Below are positions 25,229 through 42,459 of a stretch of 53,308 bases of DNA, one piece after another; position 1 is the stretch's first letter; every line of letters begins with the position of its first letter. The stretch comes from a virus: the IMG/VR virus record IMGVR_UViG_3300005836_000021, positions 1 through 53,308 of that record; one strand, given 5' to 3'. Position numbers and translations under genes: made by a program. The notes under the pieces were generated by a model, which was not told the DNA's origin, ran no database searches, and worked only from the letters and a program-made list of their open reading frames with translations.

Positions 25229-25420
25229 TCATACCTGGGTGGGCACACACACCCAGGGTCGTTCGGGGCACAGGTCCAACGGCCTGCGCTTCTCGACTTG
25301 TGGGCTGGGGCTGGGCACGGGTTCGGGTGCGGGTACCACCACGCGGCCCGCGGTGTAGAAACCCAGGCCGACCCACGCAGCCAACCACACCAGCAACGCC
25401 ACCAGCACCAGGGCCCGCAT
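25229..25420 (-). CDS. Small membrane-anchored Pro-rich protein (63 aa; alternative start at 25435)
   Basis: MRALVLVALLVWLAAWVGLGFY is a TM segment, followed by PAPEPVPSPSP. TGATG junction with the upstream fibre gene. Confidence 0.45.
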   Translation of the reverse strand: MRALVLVALLVWLAAWVGLGFYTAGRVVVPAPEPVPSPSPQVEKRRPLDLCPERPWVCVPTQV

Positions 25421-26034
25421 CAGTCCACCGGCCACACGATACCCCAGCTCCCCGAGTATATGATGCTGTTCGACCCGGTGCTGACCAACTGCGCTGCCTG
25501 GAACTGTACCGTTCCCGCGTTTGCGCCGTTCACGAGGTACCCGTGGATGGTTTCAGTTTGTGCGTTGGGAGCAGCGGACGTGGGCCAATCGATCTGAGTG
25601 CCAAAAGCGACGGCCGGTCCGCCGGTCGTTTGAAAGGACGTGTTCAGGAAGACAATCGACGTTGGCGACGCAGGCCCAGTAAATGTCGCCTTCCAGTCTG
25701 CGGCGCCCGCCCCTGTGTGCATGATGTAGAGCACAAAGGCATACGTTTTGCCGGCGGCCACCGCGAACGCTAGGCCCGTCACGTCGCTCAAGGTGGTGTT
25801 GGAGTTCTTGGTGAAGTTGGAAGTGGTACGGAAGAACGAAGGCGTACGGACGGTCAGGTTAGTGAGCGCGGACCCGTCCAGGCTGGCCAGGTACGTGCTG
25901 TTCAAGGCCCGGATCTTCCCGTTGTCATCGATGGGGGTTTTCAGGACGTTGAGGTTGTCCCGGATGTGGGTGTTCATCAGCGAGGCCGTAACGGTCTCAC
26001 CAGGCGACCAGGTGCGGGGGGTGGTCCAGGCCAT
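25420..26034 (-). CDS. Tail fibre / receptor-binding protein, paralog C (204 aa)
   Basis: The N-terminus MAWTTPRTWSPGETVTASLMNTHIRDNLNVLK is shared with 29059..29991 and 29993..30280. Confidence 0.6.
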   Translation of the reverse strand: MAWTTPRTWSPGETVTASLMNTHIRDNLNVLKTPIDDNGKIRALNSTYLASLDGSALTNLTVRTPSFFRTTSNFTKNSNTTLSDVTGLAFAVAAGKTYAFVLYIMHTGAGAADWKATFTGPASPTSIVFLNTSFQTTGGPAVAFGTQIDWPTSAAPNAQTETIHGYLVNGANAGTVQFQAAQLVSTGSNSIIYSGSWGIVWPVD

Positions 26035-26037
26035 GGG

Positions 26038-26592
26038 TTATGCGCCTCCAAAAAAGGACTTCAGGTTCTCCAACAGCGTGGCGTTTTCCGCCACCGGAAC
26101 GGGGTCTTCCGCTGCAACCTCGACGGCCAGTTGTGTAGCAGCCTGCACCAGCACCGACTTGAAAAAGGCAGCGCACTGGGGACACAGGTGCGCGCCTGTG
26201 ATCTCGGGGTGCGGTTCGGTGGCTGGAACCTTGGGGTGGCTGCACAGCCAGCAACTATCGGGGTCGGTAGCCACAGGCCAGGCCACGGCGCCGCTGCGGT
26301 AGGGGTCGAGGAATCCCGTGCTGCCGGTTTGTCGCTCGATCGGTTCCAGGTCCTGCGCCTTTGGCACCTTGCCGCACGTGCCGCATGCCACCTGAACAGC
26401 GCGCACCCCGTTGAGGTCGATCACGTGTCGCAGTGCGGGAAGGTTGGCCTTGTGCGTGGCCGGCGCGAAGTCCCCGGGCATAAGGGCGCGCAGGTAGAAC
26501 GCTGGGTGCCCCTTGTGCTCCACGGCCCACCAAACCTCGCCGATGTTCGGCGTGGTGGGAAGGCCGTACCAGTCCAGCATTGGCCGCTTCAT
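26038..26592 (-). CDS. Cys-rich hypothetical protein (184 aa)
   Basis: CGTCG and CWLC...CPQC are zinc-ribbon-like pairs. TGATG junction with the upstream gene. Confidence 0.5.
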   Translation of the reverse strand: MKRPMLDWYGLPTTPNIGEVWWAVEHKGHPAFYLRALMPGDFAPATHKANLPALRHVIDLNGVRAVQVACGTCGKVPKAQDLEPIERQTGSTGFLDPYRSGAVAWPVATDPDSCWLCSHPKVPATEPHPEITGAHLCPQCAAFFKSVLVQAATQLAVEVAAEDPVPVAENATLLENLKSFFGGA

Positions 26593-27830
26593 CAAACTCC
26601 TCCCAGGTGCACCACAGCCTGCACCACAGCCTCAGATGCCTGAGCCCCGGGGCCTGACACCAGTTCACCAACCAACCGCAGCCCCGCCTCTTCGGCCAAG
26701 CCAGCCAACCCATCCTTGCGCAGCAGGGTGTCACCATAGGCGTACACCACCAGGCGCCGGGCGACCCGCGGCAACGTGGCGCGAACCAAAGCGGCATCCG
26801 CCGGCGCCACCTCGAGCAGGCGCCCAGGCATCAGCAACACCACGTCGAAAGGGGTGGGTGGTGGCACATGATTGCGGCAGAAGTCAACCAGGTTGCCCTG
26901 CTGCACACCGGGGCCGCCCTGGGCCGCACGGGCGGGGTCGATTTCCACACCCTGTCCATGGCCTCCCAACTGGCGCAGCAAGGCGCCGTCACCACAACCC
27001 AGGTCCAAGGCACTGCCCACTGGGCCCACCGCGCGGGCCACGACGGCATGTGCCGCCTGCATGGCGCCGTAGGTGGCGAACCCGTTCAATTCGTGTGACG
27101 GTGCGGGTGGCAGCGCGTTGCCCTGGCCTGCCCTGACGAGCGTTGTCGAGCCTGCCTTGTCAGTGCCCAGCATGAACCTGAAGTGGGGTGTGGTCACGAT
27201 CGCCAGCGGCCCGTCGGCATCGTACGTGACCGGCAGCCGCAGCAAAGCCTCGATGGCCGCCACGTCAGCCTCAACCTCACGGCCCAGGGCCAGATAGGCA
27301 CGGGCTTGCGCGATGGTAGCCTCACAGGTCGCACTGCACGGCAGGTGCGGCACCAGGCGCACGCCCAGCCACCTCAGCAGGATGTTGGTTTCCCAGGGGC
27401 CCTCAACAGTGGCCATGGCCCGGGTGGTGTCGGTGCTTTGCCGCGCAATCCATTCGCGTGCGAAGAACTCACGGCAGCACTGCGGGAAGCCCAGCAACTG
27501 GCCCACCTGGTCATCGTCGGGCCCCGCGGCCCACGCCTTGTGCCAGGACGCGGCCAGGGCTGCCGTCAGCGTGACTGCGGCCCGGTAGTTGCCCTCGGGG
27601 CGCTGCCCCAAGATGACCAGATGCAGGCCCTGCCGGGCGCAGTCGGCCGATGCCTGGGCCAGCTCGTGCGGCTCCAGCACCACCAGGGCGCTGGTGCGCA
27701 AACGGCCCACGCTGGCCAGCTCGATCTGTTGCCATGCCTCTCGCGCGCGCTCGAGCACGGGCCCCCACGCGGTGCGGTCGGCCGTAGTCGGCCACTGGGG
27801 CCCGTGGGCCCACTCTTGCAAACCGTTCAT
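26592..27830 (-). CDS. Two-domain protein: unknown N-terminal domain (GFPQCCREFF motif) plus a C-terminal class I SAM-dependent methyltransferase
   Basis: ALDLGCGDGALLRQL is motif I and FDVVLLMPG follows. ATGA overlap with the rSAM gene. Confidence 0.6.
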   Translation of the reverse strand: MNGLQEWAHGPQWPTTADRTAWGPVLERAREAWQQIELASVGRLRTSALVVLEPHELAQASADCARQGLHLVILGQRPEGNYRAAVTLTAALAASWHKAWAAGPDDDQVGQLLGFPQCCREFFAREWIARQSTDTTRAMATVEGPWETNILLRWLGVRLVPHLPCSATCEATIAQARAYLALGREVEADVAAIEALLRLPVTYDADGPLAIVTTPHFRFMLGTDKAGSTTLVRAGQGNALPPAPSHELNGFATYGAMQAAHAVVARAVGPVGSALDLGCGDGALLRQLGGHGQGVEIDPARAAQGGPGVQQGNLVDFCRNHVPPPTPFDVVLLMPGRLLEVAPADAALVRATLPRVARRLVVYAYGDTLLRKDGLAGLAEEAGLRLVGELVSGPGAQASEAVVQAVVHLGGV

Positions 27831-29062
27831 GTTACCACCTCTCCACCCAGTATACCACCCAGGTCGGTGTGGTCGCCATGCGGCACGTCACCATGGTCGC
27901 CATGGTCGTGGTGCACCACCTTGGCCGTGTGAACTACCAGGGCCATGTTAAGGCGGTCGGCGATGCGGGCCTGTAGGTCGGGTGCCAGGCTGGCGGGCTG
28001 CACACCCTTGGCCACCAGTTCTTGTTCCACGCGCTCGAGCACCGCGAACCAGGTCGGGCAGTCGACGCTGCGCTTGCGCCAGTCACCACCGATGGCCGTG
28101 CCTGGGCACTGACCCCCGCACTGCAAGAAGAACCGGCACCCGTGGCACCCACCCTCAGCCTGGGGTGTCTGCCACAACACCACCTGCCGCACCTTGACCG
28201 TCGTGTCGGCTGGCAGCCATTGCTTTCCGTCCTTGTGCACCCGTTGGCACAGGCCGCGGGTACCGTCGGCCTCGATGCCGTGCACCGCTGGGGTCGACCA
28301 GGGGTCGCAGTCCGACCACACACACCCCGCGTCGGCGTCAGCGTTGCGCAGCTTGGCCTCCACATCCGTGAATAGGTCAAAGCGCAGGCGCAGGCTGGCC
28401 TCTAGGTCATGCGCAGCAAACAGGGCCGCCACGTTCTGGCCGCTGGGCAAGGCAAGCATGCGCCCAGGGCCATCCAGTTCCAGCAGGTGCAGCCGGGCGT
28501 GCTTCAGCCCCACCGCGTCCAGGTCGCGGAACCATTGCAGCAGAACCGGAAGGCGCTCAGGCGTGGCGTTCAGCTTGTGTAGGGTCACGATAAGGCTGGC
28601 CCCGATACCATCGGCCAGACACCTGCGCAGCATTGCCTCGCTGTGCGCCGTGGCCGCGCGGGTCTGCTCCTGCGTTCCCGCCACGCGGGCGTCGTTCAAA
28701 GGGCCTGGGCCGTCGATCGAGAACCCCACGTGCACCCGGTACTTCTTGAAGGCGGCCAGGTGTTCCTCTGTGATTGGGCGCCCGCTGGTCTGGACCCCAT
28801 TGTGGCCATACCGCTCCAGGCCAAAGGCCCACAGCTTTTCCAGATCGGCCAACGGAGCCAGCAGCGGCTCCCCTCCGAACACGCTGAACCCATCGGGGCC
28901 CGCAGCGGCCTGCACCGCGGCCTGCACCGCAGCATGATCGATACCCGCGGGCGCCGCGTTGCCGCTGGCCCGCCGCACGGTGTGCTGATAGCAATACGTG
29001 CAGGACAGCCCACCAACCTGGGCGCCACAGCGCATTCCCGTGACGTTTACCTCAACGCTCAC
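27827..29062 (-). CDS. Radical SAM enzyme with a SPASM-type C-terminal domain and a His-x-Asp tail
   Basis: The Cys pattern RCGAQVGGLSCTYCY is a non-canonical Cx8CxxC. FGGEPLL is the SAM GGE motif. CHGCRFFLQCGGQCPG is the SPASM CxxCx5Cx3C. The C-terminus is HHDHGDHGDVPHGDHTD. GTG start in a GTGA overlap with the fibre gene. Confidence 0.7.
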   Translation of the reverse strand: MSVEVNVTGMRCGAQVGGLSCTYCYQHTVRRASGNAAPAGIDHAAVQAAVQAAAGPDGFSVFGGEPLLAPLADLEKLWAFGLERYGHNGVQTSGRPITEEHLAAFKKYRVHVGFSIDGPGPLNDARVAGTQEQTRAATAHSEAMLRRCLADGIGASLIVTLHKLNATPERLPVLLQWFRDLDAVGLKHARLHLLELDGPGRMLALPSGQNVAALFAAHDLEASLRLRFDLFTDVEAKLRNADADAGCVWSDCDPWSTPAVHGIEADGTRGLCQRVHKDGKQWLPADTTVKVRQVVLWQTPQAEGGCHGCRFFLQCGGQCPGTAIGGDWRKRSVDCPTWFAVLERVEQELVAKGVQPASLAPDLQARIADRLNMALVVHTAKVVHHDHGDHGDVPHGDHTDLGGILGGEVVT

Positions 29063-29991
29063 GGCACCACCGTGGGCTGCGAAATCGCCACCGTATCGCC
29101 ATGGTCGCTATGGTCACCATGGGGGGCATCGCTGTGCGGGGTGTCGGTGTGTGGCACGTCGCTGTGCGACACATCTCCATGGGGCACACTGGCTGTGTCT
29201 CCGTGGGCCGCGTCGCCATGGGCCAGGTCCGCGTGGCCAGGGCCGTCGTTGTGGTCTTGATGTGTTATGTCGTTGTGGGCCGCGTCGGTGTGTGGGATGC
29301 CGGCGGTGTCCGTGTGTGCCACATCCCCATGGGCATCCCCGTGGCTCACGCTGTCGGTGTGGTCGTCGTGCACCGTGCCGTCCGCATGAGCCACGTCGTT
29401 GTGGCCACGGCGCTCGAGCGTACCCGATTCCCGCACCCAGTGGGTATAGGTTTCCACCCACAGACTTCCTCCGATGGCTGAGGCGTCGGTGTGGCTGGCC
29501 GCCGTGCTGTCGCTGCTGTGGCACAAGCGCTCATCCCCACTGGCGTCAATGTAGTGGAAATCGTTTCCCTCCGCCCACACGCTGCCTGCCACCGCGCCAG
29601 CGGGGGTGCTCACGTACGTGCCCAGGAACCGGTACTCGGTTGTCTGGTTGCTGGCAATGTGGTGCAGGTACTGGCCCTCGATCCAGTTTCCCCTCCGTAG
29701 ACCCCCGCCCAGGTCCTCGTACTTGTCCGCACCCACCGGCAGCACCAGCCGGCTGGTGCCTTGGAACCGGTTGCGCCCCGCGGTGTAAGAGGTGCCTGCG
29801 GTGCGGGTGGCCAACCCCGTCAGTGCGGTGGGATCTAGGCTGGCCAAGGTGGTGCTGCTCAGGTCGGTCAACCGCCCTGCATCGTCCCTAGTGGTTTTGA
29901 GAACCAACAGGTTGTCACGCAGGTGGGCGTTCATGATCGCCGCGGTCACTATCTCGCCGTTGGTCCACGTGCGGGGGGCGGTCCAGGCCAT
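29059..29991 (-). CDS. Tail fibre paralog B (310 aa) with a C-terminal His-x-Asp repeat domain
   Basis: It has the shared N-terminal MAWTAPRTW...RDNLLVLK domain. Residues 197-299 contain 21 H-x-D triplets. Confidence 0.65.
   Translation of the reverse strand: MAWTAPRTWTNGEIVTAAIMNAHLRDNLLVLKTTRDDAGRLTDLSSTTLASLDPTALTGLATRTAGTSYTAGRNRFQGTSRLVLPVGADKYEDLGGGLRRGNWIEGQYLHHIASNQTTEYRFLGTYVSTPAGAVAGSVWAEGNDFHYIDASGDERLCHSSDSTAASHTDASAIGGSLWVETYTHWVRESGTLERRGHNDVAHADGTVHDDHTDSVSHGDAHGDVAHTDTAGIPHTDAAHNDITHQDHNDGPGHADLAHGDAAHGDTASVPHGDVSHSDVPHTDTPHSDAPHGDHSDHGDTVAISQPTVVP
29095..29403 (-). repeat. Degenerate ~15-nt (pentapeptide H-x-D-x-x) coding repeat
   Basis: Translation reads HNDVAHADGTVHDDHTDSVSHGDAHGDVAHTDTAGIPHTDAAHNDITHQDHNDGPGHADLAHGDAAHGDTASVPHGDVSHSDVPHTDTPHSDAPHGDHSDHGD. 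Confidence 0.85.
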
Positions 29992-29992
29992 G

Positions 29993-30280
29993 TTAGATGG
30001 CCCACTTATCGGCGCCCACAGGCACCACCACGCGAGTGGTACCCCCGCCGTTGAAGTTCTGCACCCCCGCCGTAAAGTCGTTTCCGGCGGCCAGCTTGGC
30101 CACGCCCGTCAGGTTGACCCCGCTGGTGTCGCCCAGGTACGTGCTGTTCAGAGCGGGGATCTTACCGTCGTTGTCGACTAGCAGCTTCAGGTGCGTGAAG
30201 TTGTCTCGGACCTGTTCGTTCAGGTCCGAGGCACCCACCAACTGCCCTATTGCCCAGGTTTTGGGCGTTGCCCATGCCAT
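29993..30280 (-). CDS. Short tail-fibre paralog A (95 aa; anchor domain only)
   Basis: MAWATPKTWAIGQLVGASDLNEQVRDNF...RVVVPVGADKWAI parallels residues 1-90 of paralog B. Its stop is 1 nt before the ATG of B. Confidence 0.55.
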   Translation of the reverse strand: MAWATPKTWAIGQLVGASDLNEQVRDNFTHLKLLVDNDGKIPALNSTYLGDTSGVNLTGVAKLAAGNDFTAGVQNFNGGGTTRVVVPVGADKWAI

Positions 30281-30290
30281 GCCTGTACCC

Positions 30291-31964
30291 TCAGTTCAAG
30301 AACGTGTTGCTGTTCAAGGTGCTGCTGTCCAACACCCAACCCACCGCGAACAGGCCATACCCCAGCACTGTGGTCTCATCCAGCTCCGTACGGCCCGGCA
30401 AATCCAGTACCCAGAACTGGGCCTTGTTCACAGGGGCCAGATCCCAGGTCACCATCACCACCCCTTCGGGCCGCAGCTCCAACGTGACCCCGTTGATGAA
30501 GTACGGGTCCGCCACCAGCCCCACGCTGCCACTAGTGACCGAAATTCGGTCGCTTATCTCTGCGTTGAATGCCTGCTCCACCGTTTCATCGTCCCAGTTG
30601 GCCATAAACGTAACCGTTTCCACCCGGGTGGTGGCGTCCTTGTGCAGGCTGATTATGAACTGGGCCAAGTCCACCGCGTTGCTGGGACTGCTCTGGTAGG
30701 GCATGTCGTACCCGTACACGTTTTCCCCATAGGTGGCCAGGCTGTCCGCGTCGTTCAGGTCGGCCAGCACGGGCTCGAAGTCGTACAAGCCACGCCCGCG
30801 CAACTGCAAGAACCACACGTGCCCGTCGTTGGGGCCATTGTTCGTGATAGTAACGTCGGCGCTGTTGCCCCCAAAGGTAGGGGTCACGGTAAGCTGGGCG
30901 CTGTAGTCGCTGCCACTGCCGTCGGCTGCGCTGTTGAACTTGTAGTCGGTGGTGACCACAGGTGCCACCATGTCCACCCCGCCCACCCGCTGGGCGACCT
31001 GTGCGGGGTCCCGATAGGGGCAGTTGATGGTGACGCTGGTGTTGCGCTGGATTTCGATGCTGCTGCCCAAGTTGAACAACACGCTGGTGGCCGCTGCGTC
31101 GCGCCTGCGCGGGTGAATGCTTACCTGGCACCGGTTGATGACGTTGTCGCGGGCGTGGGTTACGGTCATGCCCAGGATCTGTTCATCCTCGTCCATGGCG
31201 AACCGAATGCTGCCCTCGCCACCCCGGCGCTTGCGGCCCTCAAACACGGCCACACCAGCCGACACAAACATGATGCCATATTCCGACATCACCAGCTTTT
31301 GCAGTTCCGACAGCACCCGGCTGGTTTCGTCCTGGGTGTTGTCCAGAGCGTACGGGTACACGTCAGATCCGGTGCCGCTGATCGTACCCCCGGGTGGCTG
31401 TCGGTCAACGGCTGCCACCAGGGTGGCAAACAGGGCGTCGGACTGCACGCTGGTTTGCACGGCCAGGCCCTTCAGCTTGGCCCGCGCGGCCTCGTCCATC
31501 CAGTCAACACAGTGCACCTGCACCGTGGGCCGCTCGACCCCGGGGTTTGGGATCACCTGGTCAATGGTGCCCTGCCACTTGATCTTGTCGCCATACAGCG
31601 GGTGGTTCAACACCAGGCGCACAGGCAGCCCGATGTCAAAGCCTGCCAGAGCGGCACCGCCCCCGGGGCTGTAGTACCCGCGCACCCCGCCGCGGTTGTT
31701 CTCGGTGTTGTCCATCTCGAACGAAAGCTCGCCCGGGTCCGCGACCCGGTCCTTGGGTGTGTTGCCGTGGATGCCCCAGCTTGCCTTCACGGGGCCCACG
31801 ATGTCGGTGGAGAAGTCCACCCACCCGTCGATGTCGAACTCCACCCGGCTGCGGGTGCCCCCGCTGGTGGTGGGGCCAGTGCCACCACTGCCCGCACCGG
31901 TGCGCGGGCCGATGGTGGCCGCCCCGCCAATGGTGCTTCCGATGCTGAAGGGGTTGGTGCCCAT
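30291..31964 (-). CDS. Distal tail (Dit-like) / baseplate protein, extended (557 aa)
   Basis: It lies downstream of the tape measure. The N-terminal half resembles siphovirus tail-family proteins (recollection only). Confidence 0.5.
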   Translation of the reverse strand: MGTNPFSIGSTIGGAATIGPRTGAGSGGTGPTTSGGTRSRVEFDIDGWVDFSTDIVGPVKASWGIHGNTPKDRVADPGELSFEMDNTENNRGGVRGYYSPGGGAALAGFDIGLPVRLVLNHPLYGDKIKWQGTIDQVIPNPGVERPTVQVHCVDWMDEAARAKLKGLAVQTSVQSDALFATLVAAVDRQPPGGTISGTGSDVYPYALDNTQDETSRVLSELQKLVMSEYGIMFVSAGVAVFEGRKRRGGEGSIRFAMDEDEQILGMTVTHARDNVINRCQVSIHPRRRDAAATSVLFNLGSSIEIQRNTSVTINCPYRDPAQVAQRVGGVDMVAPVVTTDYKFNSAADGSGSDYSAQLTVTPTFGGNSADVTITNNGPNDGHVWFLQLRGRGLYDFEPVLADLNDADSLATYGENVYGYDMPYQSSPSNAVDLAQFIISLHKDATTRVETVTFMANWDDETVEQAFNAEISDRISVTSGSVGLVADPYFINGVTLELRPEGVVMVTWDLAPVNKAQFWVLDLPGRTELDETTVLGYGLFAVGWVLDSSTLNSNTFLN

Positions 31965-31971
31965 GGCCTGG

Positions 31972-32976
31972 TTACATGCCCATCGCGAAGATGTTCAACG
32001 ACATGAGGGTGGCGTTGTTCGTCCCACTTGTGTTTCCAACGTACAACTCCAGATAGTCATTGGTAGCCAGCGTGACCACCACGTGTATGGCGTTGCCCTG
32101 CACCGAACTAGTGGTCAGGTCTTGCATCACCTTGCTGGCCGCAACGACCGTTCCGTTCTTGGCCACACCAATGACATATCGGTTGCTGGCTGCGCCCTTG
32201 CTGGACCAGGTACATGCAACGTGGAACACCTTTGTGACTGCCCCTGTATACCTCAAACGCCCATTGTCGGCGCCCCCGTTGTCGAACTCGTGGTCGAAGT
32301 TGCCCGCCGTTGTCACCGCCGCCTTGACCATGTTGGTGCTGCCGTCGCTTTGTGCGGAAATGGTCACGGTGGTGCCCGTGGTGTCAAAGTACGAAACCTC
32401 GCCCATGGGCAGCATCCACCTACCGTACGGGGTTCCGCCCGCGATGGTGTTGGGAAGCACAACTCGCTTCGGCACAATGTTCTGAGCGTGAATGGCCGTG
32501 GCTCCAGGCGTAACCCACACCGCGGCCAGGGCTACGCTATTGGCGGGCACACCTGGGATGCGGGGGTTGACTGCCGGAGTGCCCGCGGTGACCGCTTTGG
32601 TGCCGCTACTGTTGACCGTGATCAGGTCCCACCGAGGTTGAAAGTTGTCGGGCGTGCTGATGGTGAGGTTTCCGCTGCCCACGGTGGCCAACACGTCAGC
32701 AACGAACACCTGTCCACTGCTGACCGCCACGGTCAGGTCAGGCGTGCCCTGGGGCGTAACCACAGCGCCGCTCACCACCCCGTACCCCGCTGCCCCCTGC
32801 GCCTGGATCACCAGGTCGGTCTCGTTGAACCTAGCCTCCCGGGCGTCGTCCAGGCCGCTGGTGTTGGCATCAGGGATGCAGAACGTTTGTGCGGCTGCGC
32901 CCAGACAGTTCTGTGCAGCAGCCGGTGCAGCCAAGGCGCCCACCAGCGCCACCGCAACGAGGAACCTCTTGACCAT
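31972..32976 (-). CDS. Tail-module protein with an N-terminal signal-peptide-like segment and a C-terminal C1q/TNF-like jelly-roll pattern
   Basis: MVKRFLVAVALVGALAAPAAAQ. GGAGGGGG lies upstream of ATG 32976 (the track start is TTG 32982). The C-terminus is ...NDYLELYVGNTSG...LNIFAMGM. Confidence 0.5.
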   Translation of the reverse strand: MVKRFLVAVALVGALAAPAAAQNCLGAAAQTFCIPDANTSGLDDAREARFNETDLVIQAQGAAGYGVVSGAVVTPQGTPDLTVAVSSGQVFVADVLATVGSGNLTISTPDNFQPRWDLITVNSSGTKAVTAGTPAVNPRIPGVPANSVALAAVWVTPGATAIHAQNIVPKRVVLPNTIAGGTPYGRWMLPMGEVSYFDTTGTTVTISAQSDGSTNMVKAAVTTAGNFDHEFDNGGADNGRLRYTGAVTKVFHVACTWSSKGAASNRYVIGVAKNGTVVAASKVMQDLTTSSVQGNAIHVVVTLATNDYLELYVGNTSGTNNATLMSLNIFAMGM

Positions 32977-32991
32977 GCCCAACCCCCTCCG

Positions 32992-35436
32992 TTACTGCGT
33001 TTGCAACAGGCCATCGCGCATGGCCCGCTTCATGGTATACGGCAACCGCTCCATGGCCTGGATCAGCTTGTCCAACTTGCCCAGGGCCTGGTCGCCACTG
33101 AGCCCACGGCCACCCATGGCGCCCGCGATCTCGCCGGCCAAAACGTGGCCTTTGCCCTGTGGGATCACGGCCTCGGGCCCGTGCAGCAGCGTGGCGCTCT
33201 CGCTCCCGAAGTTCACGAAGTCCAGGCCCGGGGTACCTTCCTTGAAGCCCGCGGGCTGGGATCGGATCTTGTTCACGTTCGCCATGCCTGCGGCCAGCGC
33301 GGCAGCCACCGCGGGCAGGCTGGCAGGCCAGGGGATGCTGGCCATGGTCTTGGCGACGGCCATGTAGGTGCTGATCAAGGCGCCGGCGATGGCCGCCGAC
33401 TTGTGCTTGCCACCCAACGACCCGAGGATGCTGACCGTGGCGTCACCCCACCGCTCCATGGAATCCGTCATACCCAGGGTGGCCTTACCCGTGGCCTCCC
33501 GCTTGGCCTTTTCTGCTGCCACCCACGCGTCCTCCAGCTCCTTGGTGGTGTACAACTGGCTGGTCCTCATGGCGTCGTACAACTGCCGGGCGTTGTCCGC
33601 CGTAGTGGCCAGCTCCGACTGCTCCTTGAAGCCAGCCTGTTCCGCAGCACGCTCACGCCCCTTGTAACTGTTGGTGGCATCCTGCCGCATGCCGTCATAC
33701 TTTTGCTTGATCAAGGCGGCCAGCCGGGTGTACTCGGCGGTCTCGCCCTGGGTCATGGCCAACAGGTTCCTCAGTTCCAGGTCCTCGCTGGCCTTCAGGT
33801 CTGCCAGGCGCTTGGCCTGCCCTGCCAGGGCGTTGCCCGTGATCTGTCGCTGGAGGTTGAACTCCAGTTGCATGATCGCGTCCGTGGACGTGCGGGCAAT
33901 GCGCACCTGTGCCACATAGTGCTGATTGATGGCCGCCACCATTTTGGCGTACTCGTTGCCCTTGCCCCCGGTCAGCTCGCGGGCCTTGAGCAACTCCATG
34001 TTCTTTTCGTTTTCGATCTCTTGCAGGCGCTTGGCCATGCCCACCTTGCCGTCCAGGGCCACCTGCTGCTGCAACTTGAGCAGGGTTTCAGCAATCTGCT
34101 TCGCGTTCTTGATGCGCTTCTTGCTGATCTCCTCGTCAGCCCCGCCCAGGTCAATGATGGCCCGCTTGGTTCCCTCCGTGGCATGGGTTTGCGCACCCTG
34201 GGCATCAACCATGGCCTTTCGGGTGGTGACGATAACCCCGTTTACCTTGGCCAGCACCCCCAGTTGTTCCTGGCCGGACTTGAGTGCCGCCTGGCCTTGA
34301 GCTGTGAACCCACCAGCCAGCTCGCGGGTGCTGGTGGCCAGTTCCTTCATGGCCGCGACGTCTTCCTTGTGCACCCCGGAAATGGTGGGGCCCAACTTGG
34401 CCGCCACCTCACCCAGCTTCACCAGGCCGTCCATGGCCGTGGCAACGCCCAGCACCATGCCCGCGATGAACGCATTGAACGCGAAGTTGGCACCAGCCCA
34501 GGCCAGCACGAACTGGCCCGCACCAAACACCGCGGCCTGGGCCACGTACGTGGCCACGATGACCACCTTCTCGAGGGCATGCACCAGCAGGTCAATCAGG
34601 GTAGTTTGTGCCCCACCGAACGCCTTCTGGATGGCCGTGGCTGCGCTGTTCATGCCCGCCATAAGCACGGGGCTACGACTGATCCCAACGCCCAGGGCGT
34701 CGGTGAAGTTCTGCATGGCCGCCTTAGCCTGCTCCACCCGATCCCCAAAGCGGACCGCTTGGTCGTGACCCGTGCCCAGTTGCTTGTGCAGCACGCTGGT
34801 GACCGCGGCAGCGGTGGCGGCCGCCTTTTCGTGCGCAGTGAGTGCTTTGGCGTCCAGGCCATGCGCGTCCGCATACGCCTGAGCGGCCGCCTTGCCGTCC
34901 ACCATCAGGCCCAACTGCTTCAGGTGCGTGGTACGCCCCGTGGCGATGCTGTTGGTCAGGGTTTCGAAGGCCTCCTTGGCGTTGCCCCCCGTGCGCTCAG
35001 CCAACATTTTGGCCCCCTCGGCCAGGGTGCGCATGTCGGCCTCGCTGGTCTTGAGGCCGTACGACAGCATCTTGGTGCCCACCTGCATGAGGTCGAAGTC
35101 GGACACCGTGCCGCGCACACCCTCGCGCATGGCGCCCAGCATAACCTGGGCGGTGCTGCCGGCGGCCTCCGACATCTGGTGGAAGCCCTCAGCAACCTCG
35201 TCCACCCTAGTACCGCGTTCGCCCAGCTCCACCACCCCAACGACCACTTCCTTCAGCACGCTGATGGCTTCGCTGCCCCAATGTTCAATGGCGGCAGCGT
35301 TCACCACCGTGTTCAGGCCGCTAAGGTGCTCCTTGGTTTTGTCAGCCTCTTGGCGGACGCCCTCCATGGCGAACTTGTACTGCTTGTCGTCGACGGTGAT
35401 CTCCAGTACCGCCCGCCCGAGCTTTTCGTCAGCCAC
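32992..35436 (-). CDS. Tail tape measure protein (814 aa)
   Basis: Supported by its size, its position after the chaperones, and a long Ala/Gly/Lys/Glu-rich helical composition with hydrophobic segments. Confidence 0.8.
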   Translation of the reverse strand: MADEKLGRAVLEITVDDKQYKFAMEGVRQEADKTKEHLSGLNTVVNAAAIEHWGSEAISVLKEVVVGVVELGERGTRVDEVAEGFHQMSEAAGSTAQVMLGAMREGVRGTVSDFDLMQVGTKMLSYGLKTSEADMRTLAEGAKMLAERTGGNAKEAFETLTNSIATGRTTHLKQLGLMVDGKAAAQAYADAHGLDAKALTAHEKAAATAAAVTSVLHKQLGTGHDQAVRFGDRVEQAKAAMQNFTDALGVGISRSPVLMAGMNSAATAIQKAFGGAQTTLIDLLVHALEKVVIVATYVAQAAVFGAGQFVLAWAGANFAFNAFIAGMVLGVATAMDGLVKLGEVAAKLGPTISGVHKEDVAAMKELATSTRELAGGFTAQGQAALKSGQEQLGVLAKVNGVIVTTRKAMVDAQGAQTHATEGTKRAIIDLGGADEEISKKRIKNAKQIAETLLKLQQQVALDGKVGMAKRLQEIENEKNMELLKARELTGGKGNEYAKMVAAINQHYVAQVRIARTSTDAIMQLEFNLQRQITGNALAGQAKRLADLKASEDLELRNLLAMTQGETAEYTRLAALIKQKYDGMRQDATNSYKGRERAAEQAGFKEQSELATTADNARQLYDAMRTSQLYTTKELEDAWVAAEKAKREATGKATLGMTDSMERWGDATVSILGSLGGKHKSAAIAGALISTYMAVAKTMASIPWPASLPAVAAALAAGMANVNKIRSQPAGFKEGTPGLDFVNFGSESATLLHGPEAVIPQGKGHVLAGEIAGAMGGRGLSGDQALGKLDKLIQAMERLPYTMKRAMRDGLLQTQ

Positions 35437-36294: not shown

Positions 36295-36909
36295 TTACGT
36301 CCCGGGTTCGGTGTGCTGTGCCACCAGGCGCCCGAACTTCTCGTCGTCGCTGGTTGCGTCGGGGTCCTCGAGACCCATGAACTCCAGGGCCAGCGCGGCG
36401 GGCTTGCCCTTGGTGTACACGGCCTCGGGGTCGCCCACCTGCACGGCCACAGGGATCTCGTACTGCACGGTCCAGTCAGCGCCGTACGGGCTGGCCCCTG
36501 CCCCACGCACCAGCAGGGCACGTTGCGCCACACTGAGCCCACGGGTCAGGCCGAGAGTCTTATACCCCGCCGTGCCAACCCCCGCGGGAGTGGTGCTGAC
36601 CGTGTTGTAGTTGAGGGCGTTGGCGTACTGCTCCAGGCTGATGTCCGCCAGCTTGAAGCCAACCGAGATCTCCTCCTCGGTGCGGAACGACTTGCGGGCC
36701 GCGGTGCTGCCCAGGGGCTTGAAGTAGTCGACCTTGTCCTTGTGCTTGACGCTGACCCCGTCCTCGGTGTAGTTCAGGTCGCCACTGGTACCAACCAGCA
36801 CCCAGGGCGCAGTGGGGTCCTCGTCGATGGCGGGGAACGCGGTGCCCACCGGAGCGGTGTACACCTCGAACGGCGCCGCAACGATCTCGTATGGTGCGGT
36901 GTTGCTCAC
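36295..36909 (-). CDS. Major tail protein (204 aa)
   Basis: Supported by its position between the tail-completion genes and the chaperones, and by size and composition. Confidence 0.6.
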   Translation of the reverse strand: MSNTAPYEIVAAPFEVYTAPVGTAFPAIDEDPTAPWVLVGTSGDLNYTEDGVSVKHKDKVDYFKPLGSTAARKSFRTEEEISVGFKLADISLEQYANALNYNTVSTTPAGVGTAGYKTLGLTRGLSVAQRALLVRGAGASPYGADWTVQYEIPVAVQVGDPEAVYTKGKPAALALEFMGLEDPDATSDDEKFGRLVAQHTEPGT

Positions 36910-38253: not shown

Positions 38254-39270
38254 TTACGTGGCCAGTGTGACCTTGACCACCGCGCGGGGGCGGAGGCACA
38301 GGGCCAGGGGGTTCGACTGGGTGTGCAGCTTGGTGTAGCGGTTCAGCTCGTCGTCCACCACCACCTTCGCGTAGATGGGCAGGCCAACCGTGTTCACGGT
38401 TTCCTGGAAGTCCGCCGGCGCGAAATAGGTGCTGAAGATGTTGCTGCCCTCGGGGAACAGGTACGCTTCCGCATCGGGGAAGAAGGGGGTTCCGCCCGTG
38501 CTGCCGCGGTACTCCTCCCACGTGACCCCGCCGTACACGAACGAGCGGGCGTTGGCCTGCTGCTGAAGAAGCGACTGGGGGTCGGCGAAGCGCAGGGTCT
38601 TGACCACGCCCAGGTCCGCGCGCAGCGTGTCGAAGAAGTCCTTGCCGCAGAACGCCCGATACCCGCTGATGGGTTCGGCTCCCAGTTCGTTCTCGATGAG
38701 CCGCTGCAAGGCCACAACCTCCCCGCGCAGGTCGCCACCCTCGTCGGTGGTGCTGTTGGGGCTGACGGTGCCGGTCTGCTGCGCCACGTTGAACTCCGTG
38801 AACAGGTTGTGCAGCGTGCTGCCGTCAGCGTCCTTCACCAGGCCCTGGATGGCCCCCGCGCGCAGGTGCTCGAGCGTGACCTCGTGCATGGCACGCAGGT
38901 CCGTGAGCCGCTCATTCACGATCGCGCTGATGGCGTCGTTGCTGTTGGGGCTACCAAACGCACGCACGCCCTGGATCTCGTCGGCCAGGACCTTGCTTTC
39001 GCGCTCGAGGTGCGACACCACAAACGACCGGGCGGTGCGCTTCTGCGCGCCGATGGTGCTGCCAGGCCCGCCGCGGGGGCTGGTCTGGATCAGGGAGAGG
39101 CGGCCATCCTTTTCCTCGATCACGATCGTGGTCGTGGTGATGCCCCGCTCGCGGAACAGCCCAAGGGCGCCAATGCGCCCAGGCTTGTACGGCGCCTTCA
39201 GGATCGCGTCGGTCAGCGACGTGAAGCTGAAAGCGTCGTTCTTGAAGATGTCCAACGCCAACGATGCCAT
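38254..39270 (-). CDS. Major capsid protein, lambda gpE-like family
   Basis: 338 aa. LFRERGITTTTIVIEEKDGRLSLIQTSPRGGP fits the major-capsid-protein-E pattern. It follows a gpD-like gene. Confidence 0.8.
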   Translation of the reverse strand: MASLALDIFKNDAFSFTSLTDAILKAPYKPGRIGALGLFRERGITTTTIVIEEKDGRLSLIQTSPRGGPGSTIGAQKRTARSFVVSHLERESKVLADEIQGVRAFGSPNSNDAISAIVNERLTDLRAMHEVTLEHLRAGAIQGLVKDADGSTLHNLFTEFNVAQQTGTVSPNSTTDEGGDLRGEVVALQRLIENELGAEPISGYRAFCGKDFFDTLRADLGVVKTLRFADPQSLLQQQANARSFVYGGVTWEEYRGSTGGTPFFPDAEAYLFPEGSNIFSTYFAPADFQETVNTVGLPIYAKVVVDDELNRYTKLHTQSNPLALCLRPRAVVKVTLAT

Positions 39271-39700: not shown

Positions 39701-40924
39701 TTAATGCTGCTGGTTACGCAGCCGATAAATCGCCTGTACGTCGATGGCCGGTGCCGCCCGCCGGGGGGCCCCGCCGTCCGGTCCCAGCCCGGCATTCACA
39801 ACCACTGCCGCGTCAACCTGGGCCGTTACTTCCGCCACCACAGCCTTCGCCTCGTCCACGCCCACTCCCGCCGCAACCAACCGAGCGGCCAGCTTGGGCT
39901 GATTGTACCGTTCGCCCAGAGCCGTGATGGTGCTGCATCGCAGCGCCTCCGCAGCCCGCTTGTCGCGTTCCACCTGTACCGCATGGGCAGCCTGTGCCTC
40001 GGTGGGCTTGATACCAACCAGGGCAGCAGTGAAAGCCACGTCAAGGCCCGCGCCTGCACACAGGGCCAGCACCTGCTCTGCCGACGCCTGCGCCTGAACC
40101 TGCGGCAGCACAGCCAAGGCTTCCGGAGCGTCTTCCACCTCTGCAATCGGCAGAGGGGTTTCCGGCGGGGGCGGCACAGGCGCCGGAGGTGGCTCCGGAG
40201 TCACACAAGCCACAGGGTCTTCAGCCAGGGGCGCCCCGGGGGTTTCCCGCGGGGCCAGCAAGGCATCGACCCGCGCCTTGAACTGTTCGGGCACCTTGAG
40301 GCCCAAGGTGGCGAACACCCTGGGGTCCAGACTGGCATTGGCTTGTGCGCCCTGCACCACCTCGTCGGCGAACCCGTTGGCCACGGCCTCGTCAGCGGTC
40401 ATCCAGGTTTCGGCATCCATCAAGGCGATCAGCTCCTTGTGTGCCAGCTTCGACTTCTGCCGGTAGGTGGCCACGATGGTATCACGGAAGGTGTCCAGGG
40501 TGTCGGCGGCCTTGCGCATTTCATCGGCGTTGCCCATGGCCATCGACCAGGGGTTGTGCACCATGATGATCGCGTTGTCCGCCACCTGCACCGGGGCGCC
40601 TGCCACCATAACCAAGGTGGCAGCGCTGGCCGCCATTCCGTCAACCAACACCTGCACCGTGCGGCCCTTGGCCTGTTGGTCGCGCAGCAGGTTATTGATC
40701 GCCATGGCCGCGGTCACGTCCCCGCCGGGGCTGTTGATACGCACCTTGATGTTCCGCACCTCGGCAGGCAGCGCCGACAGGTCCTCCGCAAACTGCTTCG
40801 CGGTCACCACACCCGGGCCCCCACCCATGTACTCGTCGAGGAAGTCGCCGATGAAGTCGAACAGCAGCACCTCCGCGGTGGGCTCGCCTGCCAGGTTCTT
40901 GATCGAATACCACGGCCTCATCAC
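39701..40924 (-). CDS. ClpP/S49-type prohead protease fused to a scaffold-like C-terminus (gpC-like)
   Basis: INSPGGDVTAAMAI...VDGMAASAATLV...IMVHNPW is the serine protease core. The C-terminal half is Ala/Pro-rich. Confidence 0.8.
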   Translation of the reverse strand: MMRPWYSIKNLAGEPTAEVLLFDFIGDFLDEYMGGGPGVVTAKQFAEDLSALPAEVRNIKVRINSPGGDVTAAMAINNLLRDQQAKGRTVQVLVDGMAASAATLVMVAGAPVQVADNAIIMVHNPWSMAMGNADEMRKAADTLDTFRDTIVATYRQKSKLAHKELIALMDAETWMTADEAVANGFADEVVQGAQANASLDPRVFATLGLKVPEQFKARVDALLAPRETPGAPLAEDPVACVTPEPPPAPVPPPPETPLPIAEVEDAPEALAVLPQVQAQASAEQVLALCAGAGLDVAFTAALVGIKPTEAQAAHAVQVERDKRAAEALRCSTITALGERYNQPKLAARLVAAGVGVDEAKAVVAEVTAQVDAAVVVNAGLGPDGGAPRRAAPAIDVQAIYRLRNQQH

Positions 40925-42459
40925 TCGCCTCCTGGCCCAGCCGGGGCAGGGGCAGGCGCCGCGCCCGCCACCTTTCCGCCCGGGGCAAACCTACCGTCGG
41001 AATCGTACTTGATGCCCAGGGCGTCCGCCCTCTGGGCGTCCACCTTTTGCTGGGCATCGATCAGCTCAGCGTCCTCGCCCTGCTCAGCCACCACGTCGGT
41101 GCGGCTGGTCAAACCACTACGGATGGCCGCATTGGCCGCCTGCACGTCTTGCACTGGGTGGATGTATGCCCACCCCTGAGGCATCCACTTTGCTGCCTGC
41201 CATGCGTCTGGGTTGGTCAGGTAGTCGGGCCCAAAGGGCAGGGCGCCGTCAAGGTACGCCCGGTCCATCCAGGCGGCCCACACCGGGCGGCACAACTGGA
41301 AGGCCACGGTCTCGTGCTGCTCTGCCATCACGTACCGCCGGAACTCGTGCAGGATCACACGCATGACCCGATCGTTCAACCCCGACATGTCGCCGGTGAG
41401 CACCTCGTAGGGCACCCCCGCAGCCGCGCACGCACTGCGCAACTGGGACTTCATGTACTCCACATAGCCCGTCTGCATGTCGGGCGGGTCGCTGAACGTA
41501 ACCTTCTCGCCTGCGTTCAGTTCCTGGAAGATGCCAGGCTGCAACCCCAACGTTGGGCGGTCCCCAGTGCCCTGGTTCCCTGCAATACCCTCTTGCCCCA
41601 GGATTGGCACCTCGCCCAGCACGTCAGTAGTGGGGTGCTCCAAAAAGGCCACAAACATGGCCGACAACTGCTGGCGCAGCAAGGTGGCGTCGTCGAACTT
41701 ATCCAGTTCCCGCAACCGGATCATAGCCTGCGTGAGGTGCGGCACGCCCCGCAACTGGCCGGCGCGCAGCGGCTTGAATACGTGCAGGATCTGCTCCGCG
41801 GGAATGCGCTTGACCACCCCCGGGTTCCAGTCGTTGATTTCCCCTGGCCGCTGGTCGTAAAAGTAGTACGCCACCCTTCGGCCAATGGCGTCCAGCTCGA
41901 TGCCGCCTTTGTAGTAGTTTCCATTGGGCGCAATGCCTGCCCAGTTCAACGGGCACATCTCTGGCTCCAGCACCTGCAACTGAAGCGACACGGCCAAGTT
42001 GTCCTTGGGCAACCGGGGGCGCAGTCGCACGAACACCTCACCAGCCTCCAACCAGCAGCGCACGGCCTGGGCCTGCTGGCCATACCACCCCTGGGTCCCG
42101 TCAGCGTCGCTGTGGTTGGCCCACGCAGCGAACAGGGCCTGGGCCTTCTCACGGAACGCAGGGTCGGGTGCCTGGCTGAGGGGCTTGATGCCGGTGCCCA
42201 CGATGTTGGTCACCAGCTTTGTGATAGCGCCCGACGCAAACCCATTGTTGCGCACGGCCTCACGGCTGCGGCGCCGCATGGCGTCGAGGTCGAACAGGAT
42301 CTGGTTCGGGGTTACGGTGGGGGCTCGCCAGCCCGCGGTGCGCCTGCCGTGGCTGCCAACCTCGTAGGTACTGGGACCCCCGATGATGTTCTTTGCCTTG
42401 CGGGTGGCCCCGCCACGGTGGCGCGGCTTGGCCTTGGTTGGAACAGGTGCAGTGGCCAT
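40921..42459 (-). CDS. Portal protein (lambda gpB family)
   Basis: 512 aa, located between the gpW-like gene and the protease. 4-nt overlap with the protease gene. Confidence 0.8.
   Translation of the reverse strand: MATAPVPTKAKPRHRGGATRKAKNIIGGPSTYEVGSHGRRTAGWRAPTVTPNQILFDLDAMRRRSREAVRNNGFASGAITKLVTNIVGTGIKPLSQAPDPAFREKAQALFAAWANHSDADGTQGWYGQQAQAVRCWLEAGEVFVRLRPRLPKDNLAVSLQLQVLEPEMCPLNWAGIAPNGNYYKGGIELDAIGRRVAYYFYDQRPGEINDWNPGVVKRIPAEQILHVFKPLRAGQLRGVPHLTQAMIRLRELDKFDDATLLRQQLSAMFVAFLEHPTTDVLGEVPILGQEGIAGNQGTGDRPTLGLQPGIFQELNAGEKVTFSDPPDMQTGYVEYMKSQLRSACAAAGVPYEVLTGDMSGLNDRVMRVILHEFRRYVMAEQHETVAFQLCRPVWAAWMDRAYLDGALPFGPDYLTNPDAWQAAKWMPQGWAYIHPVQDVQAANAAIRSGLTSRTDVVAEQGEDAELIDAQQKVDAQRADALGIKYDSDGRFAPGGKVAGAAPAPAPAGPGGE

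Follow-up and report, generated by a model that had tools for sequence, protein, structure and literature searches.

The window analysed here, a stretch of 53,308 nucleotides (nt) of viral DNA (IMG/VR record IMGVR_UViG_3300005836_000021, positions 1 to 53,308), belongs to a siphovirus-like phage and carries on its minus strand a module of six genes (gpA to gpF). Within this module the gene for a radical S-adenosylmethionine (rSAM)/SPASM enzyme, gpC, follows a fibre gene, gpB, whose product ends in a dense array of His-x-Asp (H-x-D) motifs. On balance, we favour the view that the module is a protein-maturation cassette placed in the tail-fibre operon and that its rSAM enzyme cross-links the H-x-D array of the fibre. 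An earlier note on this DNA had suggested that the His-x-Asp tail of the fibre is cross-linked or otherwise modified, and both the type of the enzyme and the linkage of its gene with H-x-D and tail proteins support this suggestion; the chemistry itself is inferred. The six genes, with protein lengths in amino acids (aa), are the following:

29993-30280, minus strand: gpA, a 95-aa paralog of the fibre N-terminal domain ending in ..VVVPVGADKWAI, recognised by alignment with gpB, gpF and Cumys_14 of the Thermus phage Cumys
29059-29991, minus strand: gpB, a 310-aa fibre with the H-x-D array
27827-29062, minus strand: gpC, a 411-aa rSAM/SPASM enzyme
26592-27830, minus strand: gpD, a 412-aa protein with DUF483 and methyltransferase domains
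26038-26592, minus strand: gpE, a 184-aa protein with three CxxC pairs
25420-26034, minus strand: gpF, a third fibre paralog of 204 aa that differs in its C-terminal domain

All six open reading frames (ORFs) that the earlier note had described as a minus-strand chain were recovered, together with the start/stop overlaps that join them. GTGA at 29062-29059 combines the gpB stop with the GTG start of the rSAM gene, ATGA at 27830-27827 forms the gpC/gpD junction and TGATG at 26594-26590 the gpD/gpE junction, which sets the gpE start at the ATG at 26592 and its length at 184 aa. By these overlaps the fibre gene gpB is translationally coupled to gpC and gpD. Gaps of 1 nt and 3 nt separate gpA from gpB and gpE from gpF, respectively. 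The description of gpA and gpF as fibre paralogs was likewise borne out, gpA, gpB (residues 1-100) and gpF (residues 1-105) being 41-44% identical in the alignment.

The proposed substrate, gpB, is built from three parts:

29707-29991, minus strand: residues 1-95, the fibre N-terminal (attachment-type) domain, delimited by the paralog alignment and found in 21-24 related loci
29404-29694, minus strand: residues ~100-196, three repeats of G-S-x-W-[VI]-E-G-x-x-[LF]-H-[YH]-[IV]-D, directly before the array
29095-29403, minus strand: residues 197-299, the array of 21 H-x-D motifs with spacers of 0-5 residues, the proposed substrate

Every His within residues 197-299 has an Asp at +2, the His-to-His spacing runs from 3 to 8 residues with 5 the commonest, and one further H-x-D lies at residue 167. 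The count of 21 triplets given by the earlier note thus stands, but the triplets are not consecutive as it had described them, being set apart by the spacers. The last 113 residues of gpB hold 20 motifs, against 3.9 ± 1.6 (maximum 10) in 20,000 shuffled sequences, and the DNA encoding the array is no tandem repeat; the protein is hence the level at which the pattern is kept up. The domain that precedes the array is homologous to the N-terminal half of Cumys_13 (BLASTP 1e-19) and was found in 51 loci, always just ahead of an array, which makes it a candidate recognition or structural domain. No Pfam model, including the Pentapeptide models, and no NCBIfam model matched gpB, and tblastn searches of 50,697 phage records with gpB(1-196) or with the 557-aa tail protein encoded next to the module gave no match.

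Support for a functional connection between enzyme and array comes from their co-occurrence. A profile of the rSAM enzyme yielded 76 viral loci and 80 genomic ones, to which two loci of Thermus phages were added, and an ORF with at least eight H-x-D motifs was counted as an array ORF. The proposal of the earlier note depended on homologs of the rSAM gene being linked to H-x-D proteins or fibres, and an array ORF was present within 5 kb of the rSAM gene in 127 of the 159 loci, 121 times on the same strand; many of the loci scored as array-negative are truncated contigs. The array ORF lay directly upstream in 99 loci, mostly overlapping or abutting the rSAM start, and downstream in 15, mostly ~1.0-1.6 kb past the rSAM end, at the position of the DUF483 gene. 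The 850 kb of flanking sequence more than 6 kb away from the rSAM genes contained a single array ORF. In the reverse test, viral contigs were scanned with a degenerate DNA pattern of four H-x-D-x-x units, and an rSAM gene was found in 16 of the 17 contigs with 20 or more motifs and 1.5 kb or more of downstream sequence. The 17th contig, like most of the weaker pattern matches without an rSAM gene, proved to be an unrelated simple repeat (HQDMR, HGDPR, HxDCK). Since the pairing of rSAM and H-x-D genes recurs in more than 100 phages and bacteria, gpC probably modifies the fibre chemically.

The module is also carried by the cultured Thermus thermophilus phages Cumys, phiMa and phiLo. In Cumys a tail-collar fibre comes first, followed by a 97-aa protein resembling gpA, a protein of 343 aa that has 54 H-x-D motifs, the rSAM enzyme and the DUF483 protein, in this order; phiLo encodes its H-x-D proteins at a distance of a few kb and on the other strand. 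The linkage also holds in the cyanobacterial loci L108 and L099. A separate observation concerns a viral fibre-like protein (locus L238, 925-2013) in which a collagen-like segment, GPPGPPGPAGAAG, stands directly ahead of 12 H-x-D motifs: an rSAM gene is absent from the 9.9 kb downstream of it and only 0.9 kb of upstream sequence is available, making this a possible array without a maturase.

The arrays are carried by proteins of different kinds and sit, as a rule, at their ends: in 104 of 115 proteins the array finishes at most 15 residues from the C-terminus. The 557-aa tail protein has homologs in 21 loci, and in 11 of these the protein itself bears a C-terminally fused array of 34-56 H-x-D motifs; a profile of this family found no match in the PDB, and against PHROG one member alone gave a single match, to a 'virion structural protein'. 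In locus L010 the array is internal to a lambda-J-like central tail fibre (phrog_31, 2.7e-47; phrog_5616, 6e-57). Bacterial arrays terminate proteins of 1000-2700 aa in Chloroflexota, Myxococcota, Planctomycetota and Cyanobacteria. Two further bacterial loci, in Pyrinomonadaceae (L095, 8762-9079) and Pseudoalteromonas (L155, 8942-9238), encode precursor-like peptides of ~80 aa of the form HTD-(DVDIDVD)n-HTD, in which arrays flank an acidic (D-x)n core and whose genes adjoin a weakly matching PhyH-like oxygenase, the rSAM enzyme and a ~620-aa DUF483 protein. These peptides indicate that the rSAM family also works in classical small-peptide settings. An actinobacterial protein of 1066 aa with a FAD_binding_4 domain (L090, 12684-15881), encoded downstream of the rSAM and DUF483 genes, has hydrophobic H-[VIA]-D motifs at its N-terminal end and in its C-terminal part; arrays are therefore not confined to phage tails.

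Next to its position, the sequence of gpC bears on what the enzyme may do. Its features are the following:

28991-29029, minus strand: cluster motif C12-x8-C21-x2-C24 (CX8CX2C, with the insert GAQVGGLS)
28859-28876, minus strand: GGE motif F62-G63-G64-E65-P-L-L, the SAM-binding motif
28247-28324, minus strand: auxiliary-cluster cysteines C247, C252 and C272
28106-28147, minus strand: SPASM motif C306xxC309x5C315x3C319
28058-28060, minus strand: auxiliary-cluster cysteine C335
27863-27913, minus strand: residues 384-400, the enzyme's own C-terminal H-x-D tail, HHDHGDHGDVPHGDHTD

gpC passes the Pfam model PF04055 (Radical_SAM) with 36.2 bits for a cut-off of 29.5 and has the GGEPLL and CxxCx5Cx3C motifs on which the earlier note had based its rSAM/SPASM call, which we can uphold; with the SPASM model TIGR04085 it stays below the cut-off (17.7 versus 27). 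Its cluster motif is not the canonical CX3CX2C: among the 120 homologs listed, 40 have the CX8CX2C spacing of gpC and 76 the canonical one. Across 36 homologs G63 and G64 are invariant and E65 nearly so, and C247, C252, C272, C306, C309, C315, C319 and C335 are all invariant. As the rSAM motif begins at residue 12, gpC has no N-terminal RRE domain, a trait it shares with anSME and the cyclophane synthases.

The best NCBIfam matches of gpC are the cyclophane maturases AmcB (2e-13), DynA and YhhB, followed by anSME, and it reaches the cut-off of no named family. Against the PDB, a profile of 36 family members found anSME (5e-17) and the triceptide synthase ChlB (5e-16). The same two came out best when the AlphaFold2 (AF2) model of gpC (pLDDT 87.8) was searched with Foldseek, with template-modelling (TM) scores of 0.61-0.71 (0.63-0.69 for ChlB), compared with ~0.45-0.5 for SkfB, SuiB and CteB, and the fold superposes on anSME across ~390 columns. 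The earlier note had pointed to a cofactor or nucleoside family as the placement that would speak against its proposal; the relatives found by sequence and by fold are instead enzymes that modify proteins or peptides. With the named-family cut-offs unreached and anSME and ChlB as nearest relatives, gpC falls in a clade of its own, a family of ~429 clusters at 50% identity (E <= 1e-30), in the branch of SPASM enzymes that act by Cβ abstraction on proteins or peptides. Judged by its sequence and predicted fold, gpC is an rSAM/SPASM enzyme of the anSME / three-residue-cyclophane-synthase type.

The motif of the proposed substrate recurs at the C-terminus of gpC itself, where the H-x-D tail is followed by a conserved L..L.GGE.V end. 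Most homologs share a tail of consensus HGDxxHGDxHGDHTD, sometimes with Tyr in place of His, and tails with at least three H-x-D motifs are found in 64 of 86 viral copies versus 19 of 81 genomic copies. This tail may be a built-in substrate or pseudo-substrate.

The variation among the arrays speaks to the kind of chemistry that could act on them. Over 115 distinct arrays, spacings of 5, 4 and 3 from one His to the next make up 33%, 20% and 9% of cases, and the largest is 9. The middle position is taken by a small residue (Gly, Thr, Ser, Ala or Val), Asp stands at +2 of 99% of the His in dense arrays, and the overall composition is 21% His and 22% Asp. Within the arrays of relatives, Tyr, Phe or Trp stand for His and Asn stands for Asp. 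Loci L083 and L085 contain 10-12 Y-x-D motifs, and L021 has a mixture of H, F and Y at position 1. The replacement goes furthest in a viral protein of L016 (2896-3942), where a gpB-like middle domain is followed by 37 F-x-N motifs, arranged as P-F-x-N-T pentapeptides, and 6 H-x-D; the rSAM enzyme of this locus has no H-x-D tail and its DUF483 gene lies upstream of the rSAM gene. In five phage loci (L056, L067, L069, L070 and L071) the arrays alternate H-x-D with ~5-11 F-x-N motifs, for example HNDVSFVNSHSDVSFVNT, and these five and no others contain two tandem rSAM paralogs (Fisher p = 1e-6). The tandem paralogs form two orthologous groups, some copies having H-x-D tails of up to 25 motifs. 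A grouping of one of them with the F-x-N enzyme of L016 was considered and rejected, all being ~43% identical to that enzyme.

Given that His gives way to Tyr, Phe or Trp, and Asp to Asn, an aromatic-X-X substrate fits these arrays better than a metal site does. What is conserved is an aromatic residue at position 1 and the β-methylene of Asp or Asn at position 3, and not the character of a metal ligand. As far as sequence can tell, the H-x-D arrays match the aromatic-X-X motif that defines triceptide substrates. Links from His-C2 to Cβ are established for HaaB (HAA), YhhB (HNR) and HtkB (HTK) (PMC11499958).

The partner of the enzyme, gpD, has two halves:

27126-27830, minus strand: N-terminal half, DUF483-like domain
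26595-27098, minus strand: C-terminal half, class I SAM-dependent methyltransferase with the motif LDLGCGDG

The N-terminal half matches PF04467 weakly (18.3 bits for a gathering score of 25), several gpD homologs carry a precomputed PF04467 assignment and the Cumys homolog is annotated as DUF483. C118, C119, H162 and C165 are invariant and C169 nearly so, forming a possible metal site. Neither sequence profile nor fold found a PDB relative of this half, Foldseek having matched gpD through the methyltransferase half only. The class I methyltransferase that the earlier note had recognised at the end of gpD was confirmed by a profile of the C-terminal half against PDB methyltransferases (1e-7), with matches that include BamL/BpumL and CgnL, methyltransferases of peptides that are made by ribosomes and modified after translation (RiPPs), and by Foldseek, which matched many methyltransferases with probability 1.0; single-sequence Pfam methyltransferase matches were below cut-offs. 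In the methyltransferase motif D276-L277-G278, G280 and G282 are invariant and C279 nearly so. DUF483 is present in 145 of the 159 loci, immediately after the rSAM gene in 98 and fused to it in 13; most of the other 43 DUF483 matches are likewise a short way downstream, on ORFs that overlap the rSAM gene when taken from stop to stop. The methyltransferase domain accompanies the enzyme in 108 loci.

The Cys-rich character given to gpE by the earlier note holds, in the form of its three CxxC pairs. gpE had no match in the family searches and its homologs occur in only 7 closely related loci among the 159; it might act as a chaperone, bind zinc or donate electrons. To none of the six gene products did the family searches assign a protease.

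Taken together, the module suggests the following course of events, which would take place before or during fibre assembly. A [4Fe-4S] cluster held by C12, C21 and C24 of gpC would, with SAM, generate a 5'-deoxyadenosyl radical, which would take a hydrogen from the Asp Cβ at the third position of every H-x-D. The resulting Asp carbon radical would add to C2 of the His imidazole at position 1, with the auxiliary clusters of the SPASM domain accepting the electron. The product would be a three-residue His-Asp cyclophane, lighter by 2 Da per motif, with up to 21 of them per chain. DUF483 would be an obligate partner, for substrate handling or for a metal-dependent step, and the methyltransferase domain of gpD would add a methyl group at some position. 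The fibre tip would then consist of small macrocycles, rigid and resistant to heat and proteases, that would still display imidazole nitrogens and carboxylates for cations or for a receptor.

Several points weigh against a cross-link. The cross-linking chemistry is deduced from sequence and structural models. Against the models of named cyclophane synthases, gpC obtains 50.1 bits for a cut-off of 425 with AmcB, 41.2 for 445 with YhhB, 26.1 for 450 with XyeB, 22.9 for 310 with GrrM/OscB and 22.4 for 370 with FxsB, and as its clade is a separate one its reaction could differ from theirs. AF2 predicts the H-x-D tail of gpC to be disordered, not docked into the enzyme. The F-x-N array of L016 matches Pfam pentapeptide-repeat models above their thresholds (1e-15) and may have a different fold, and the DUF483 protein of the Pseudoalteromonas locus ends in DUF364, described as 'putative heavy-metal chelation'. 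His and Asp are, moreover, classic metal ligands, so that the arrays could be metal sites whatever the enzyme does, and no characterised triceptide substrate comes close to a trimer-forming protein of 310 residues that is modified 21 times. We hold it to be unlikely, albeit a serious contender, that the enzyme acts on the same substrate by another chemistry, such as oxidation of Asp towards aminomalonate, Cβ functionalisation, epimerisation or preparation of the site for methylation. The linkage of rSAM and H-x-D genes is equal evidence for this and for a cross-link, anSME is at least as close to gpC as ChlB while no cyclophane-synthase cut-off is reached, the frequent methyltransferase domain (108/159 loci) would find a place in it, and an enzyme forming three-residue cyclophanes, described by Ma et al. 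in 2021, can reportedly also yield formylglycine and aminomalonate. The exchange of His, Tyr, Phe and Trp at position 1 would nevertheless be hard to explain if only the Asp were touched, and Asp and Asn have no β-heteroatom for an oxidation of the anSME type.

The same substitutions bear on the idea that the array chiefly serves a trimeric fibre as a metal-binding spine, comparable to the H-x-H iron sites at the tip of the T4 long tail fibre, with the rSAM enzyme and DUF483 serving metal loading or assembly, which we judge decidedly improbable. An array composition of 21% His and 22% Asp, the invariant Cys/His cluster of DUF483 and its fusion to DUF364 in some bacteria would suit such a spine, the H-x-D tail of the enzyme could co-ordinate a metal jointly with the fibre, and the array of L238 comes right after a collagen-like trimerisation segment. 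Yet the non-ligands Phe and Asn substitute within the same arrays, almost completely so in L016, the irregular spacing of 3-9 residues fits a regular metal-threaded β-structure poorly, and the protein-modifying rSAM/SPASM clade has no known role in metal insertion. Metal binding and cross-linking are not exclusive, since cross-linked motifs could still bind metal. That the rSAM-DUF483-methyltransferase set is instead a module for DNA or nucleoside modification, standing in the fibre operon incidentally, seems to us very far-fetched: some cyanobacterial homologs lie near deazapurine DNA-modification genes (bioRxiv 10.1101/2024.08.14.607894) and rSAM enzymes and methyltransferases do occur in such pathways, but the nearest relatives of gpC by sequence and fold act on proteins or peptides, the genes overlap with fibre genes by their starts and stops, the linkage to H-x-D proteins extends across phyla and includes the cyanobacterial loci L108 and L099, and the rSAM enzyme carries H-x-D on its own tail.

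With cross-linking of the H-x-D array as the preferred reading, the closest known systems are the triceptide synthases (XyeB, GrrM/OscB, FxsB, YhhB, HaaB, HtkB, ChlB and AmcB). They resemble gpC in being anSME-related rSAM/SPASM enzymes without an RRE and in having an adjacent substrate gene with repeated aromatic-X-X motifs; for them His motifs are known substrates, joined from His-C2 to Cβ with a loss of 2 Da. Unlike their leader-core peptides, the substrates here are virion proteins of 300-1500 aa with 20-90 motifs, the third residue is always Asp or Asn and a DUF483(-methyltransferase) protein is an obligate partner; also unlike the triceptide synthases, the enzyme itself has the motif at its C-terminal end, and the CX8CX2C spacing occurs in a third of its family. 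anSME provides the closest solved structure and likewise acts on a full-length protein by abstraction of a Cβ hydrogen. However, TIGR03942 gives gpC only 34.5 bits for a cut-off of 349, and Asp and Asn are not oxidisable to formylglycine in the same way; the ORFs and family matches examined contained no C/S-x-P-x-R sulfatase motif and no sulfatase gene.

The Hxs system also pairs a protein of repeated His-x-X motifs genomically with rSAM/SPASM maturases. The present module differs in having a single rSAM enzyme with DUF483, a phage tail as its setting, and Asp where Hxs has Ser at the third position. The parallel with HxsB/HxsC drawn by the earlier note is thus good as an analogy and fails as a membership, gpC obtaining 19.4 bits for a cut-off of 370 with HxsB (TIGR03978), and HxsA, HxsC and HxsD had no match among the gene products in NCBIfam. 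By its sequence features, the system appears to work like a triceptide pathway while standing outside the named triceptide families, Hxs and anSME, and, with a 310-aa structural protein as its substrate, it falls outside RiPP pathways strictly defined.

Two other comparisons concern the array and the tail of the enzyme. H-x-H motifs bind iron in the fibre tips of T4 (gp37 and gp12), which are like gpB in repeating His triplets at the distal end of a trimeric fibre; unlike them, the present arrays have H-x-D, irregular spacing, Phe and Asn replacements and a dedicated rSAM enzyme. The borosin N-methyltransferase OphMA and the fused burpitide cyclases are enzymes fused to their own core peptides and share with gpC a substrate motif at the enzyme's own terminus, whereas the main substrate here would be a separate protein.

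The same trio of genes has been reported before as an 'rSAM module' of the Thermus phages Cumys and phiMa and of prophages, with a tentative assignment to DNA modification; the repeats are not mentioned there and the word 'histidine' does not occur in the main text (bioRxiv 10.1101/2024.08.14.607894). The correspondence with our module is direct, the Cumys rSAM enzyme being 49% identical to gpC, Cumys_13 containing 54 motifs and Cumys_11 being a DUF483 protein; unlike gpD, the Thermus versions have no methyltransferase domain. Our literature searches found no H-x-D repeat motif, peptide-maturase reading or tail-protein target described for the trio, and nothing relevant on DUF483, on phage cyclophanes or triceptides, or on SPASM in connection with tails. 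Of the statement in the earlier note that no rSAM maturation of a phage structural protein had been described, the part on maturation therefore agrees with these searches, but the genes themselves were already on record.

In its widest form, the claim would be that phages of many host phyla cross-link the ends of their fibres or tail tips by means of rSAM/SPASM enzymes, with dozens of aromatic-to-Asp/Asn cyclophanes per chain, and that this is the first case of a virion structural protein matured by radical chemistry of the RiPP type; our own estimate of this broader claim is evenly balanced. Radical SAM peptide maturases have so far been known for producing small natural products, and for phage particles the known examples of covalent post-translational chemistry are mainly cross-links in capsids. 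If the claim is true, radical chemistry would harden or functionalise the receptor-binding apparatus of phages, DUF483 would gain a functional context as a new partner domain, the enzyme would be one with a substrate-like tail of its own, and the existence of the gene trio in ~430 sequence clusters would be explained. The same chemistry would then act on large bacterial proteins and on small acidic peptides, extending cyclophane-forming enzymes to highly repetitive full-length proteins, with a possible use in protein engineering. The cultured Thermus phages Cumys, phiMa and phiLo make the idea directly testable.

The siphovirus-like character of the contig is given by its structural genes:

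40921-42459, minus strand: portal
39701-40924, minus strand: head protease
38254-39270, minus strand: major head protein
36295-36909, minus strand: major tail protein
32992-35436, minus strand: 814-aa ORF in the tape-measure position, placed by size and synteny, without a PHROG match
31972-32982, minus strand: 336-aa baseplate-like protein
30291-31964, minus strand: 557-aa tail-tip/baseplate-type protein, directly upstream of the module and after the tape-measure and 336-aa genes

At the other end of the module, a 68-aa ORF with a hydrophobic N-terminal segment (25229-25435) overlaps the 3' end of gpF and may be a lysis gene of the holin/spanin type. The nearest genomic relative of the rSAM enzyme belongs to a Vicinamibacteria (Acidobacteriota) genome (69% identity), and the host of the phage is on this ground probably an acidobacterium. 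The closest related locus is present in two copies, L079 and L080, in the Vicinamibacteria metagenome-assembled genome CBDFGD010000002.1, at 5.02 and 3.03 Mb of one 5.1-Mb contig; their identical ORF coordinates, 2 Mb apart on the same contig, suggest a duplicated prophage.

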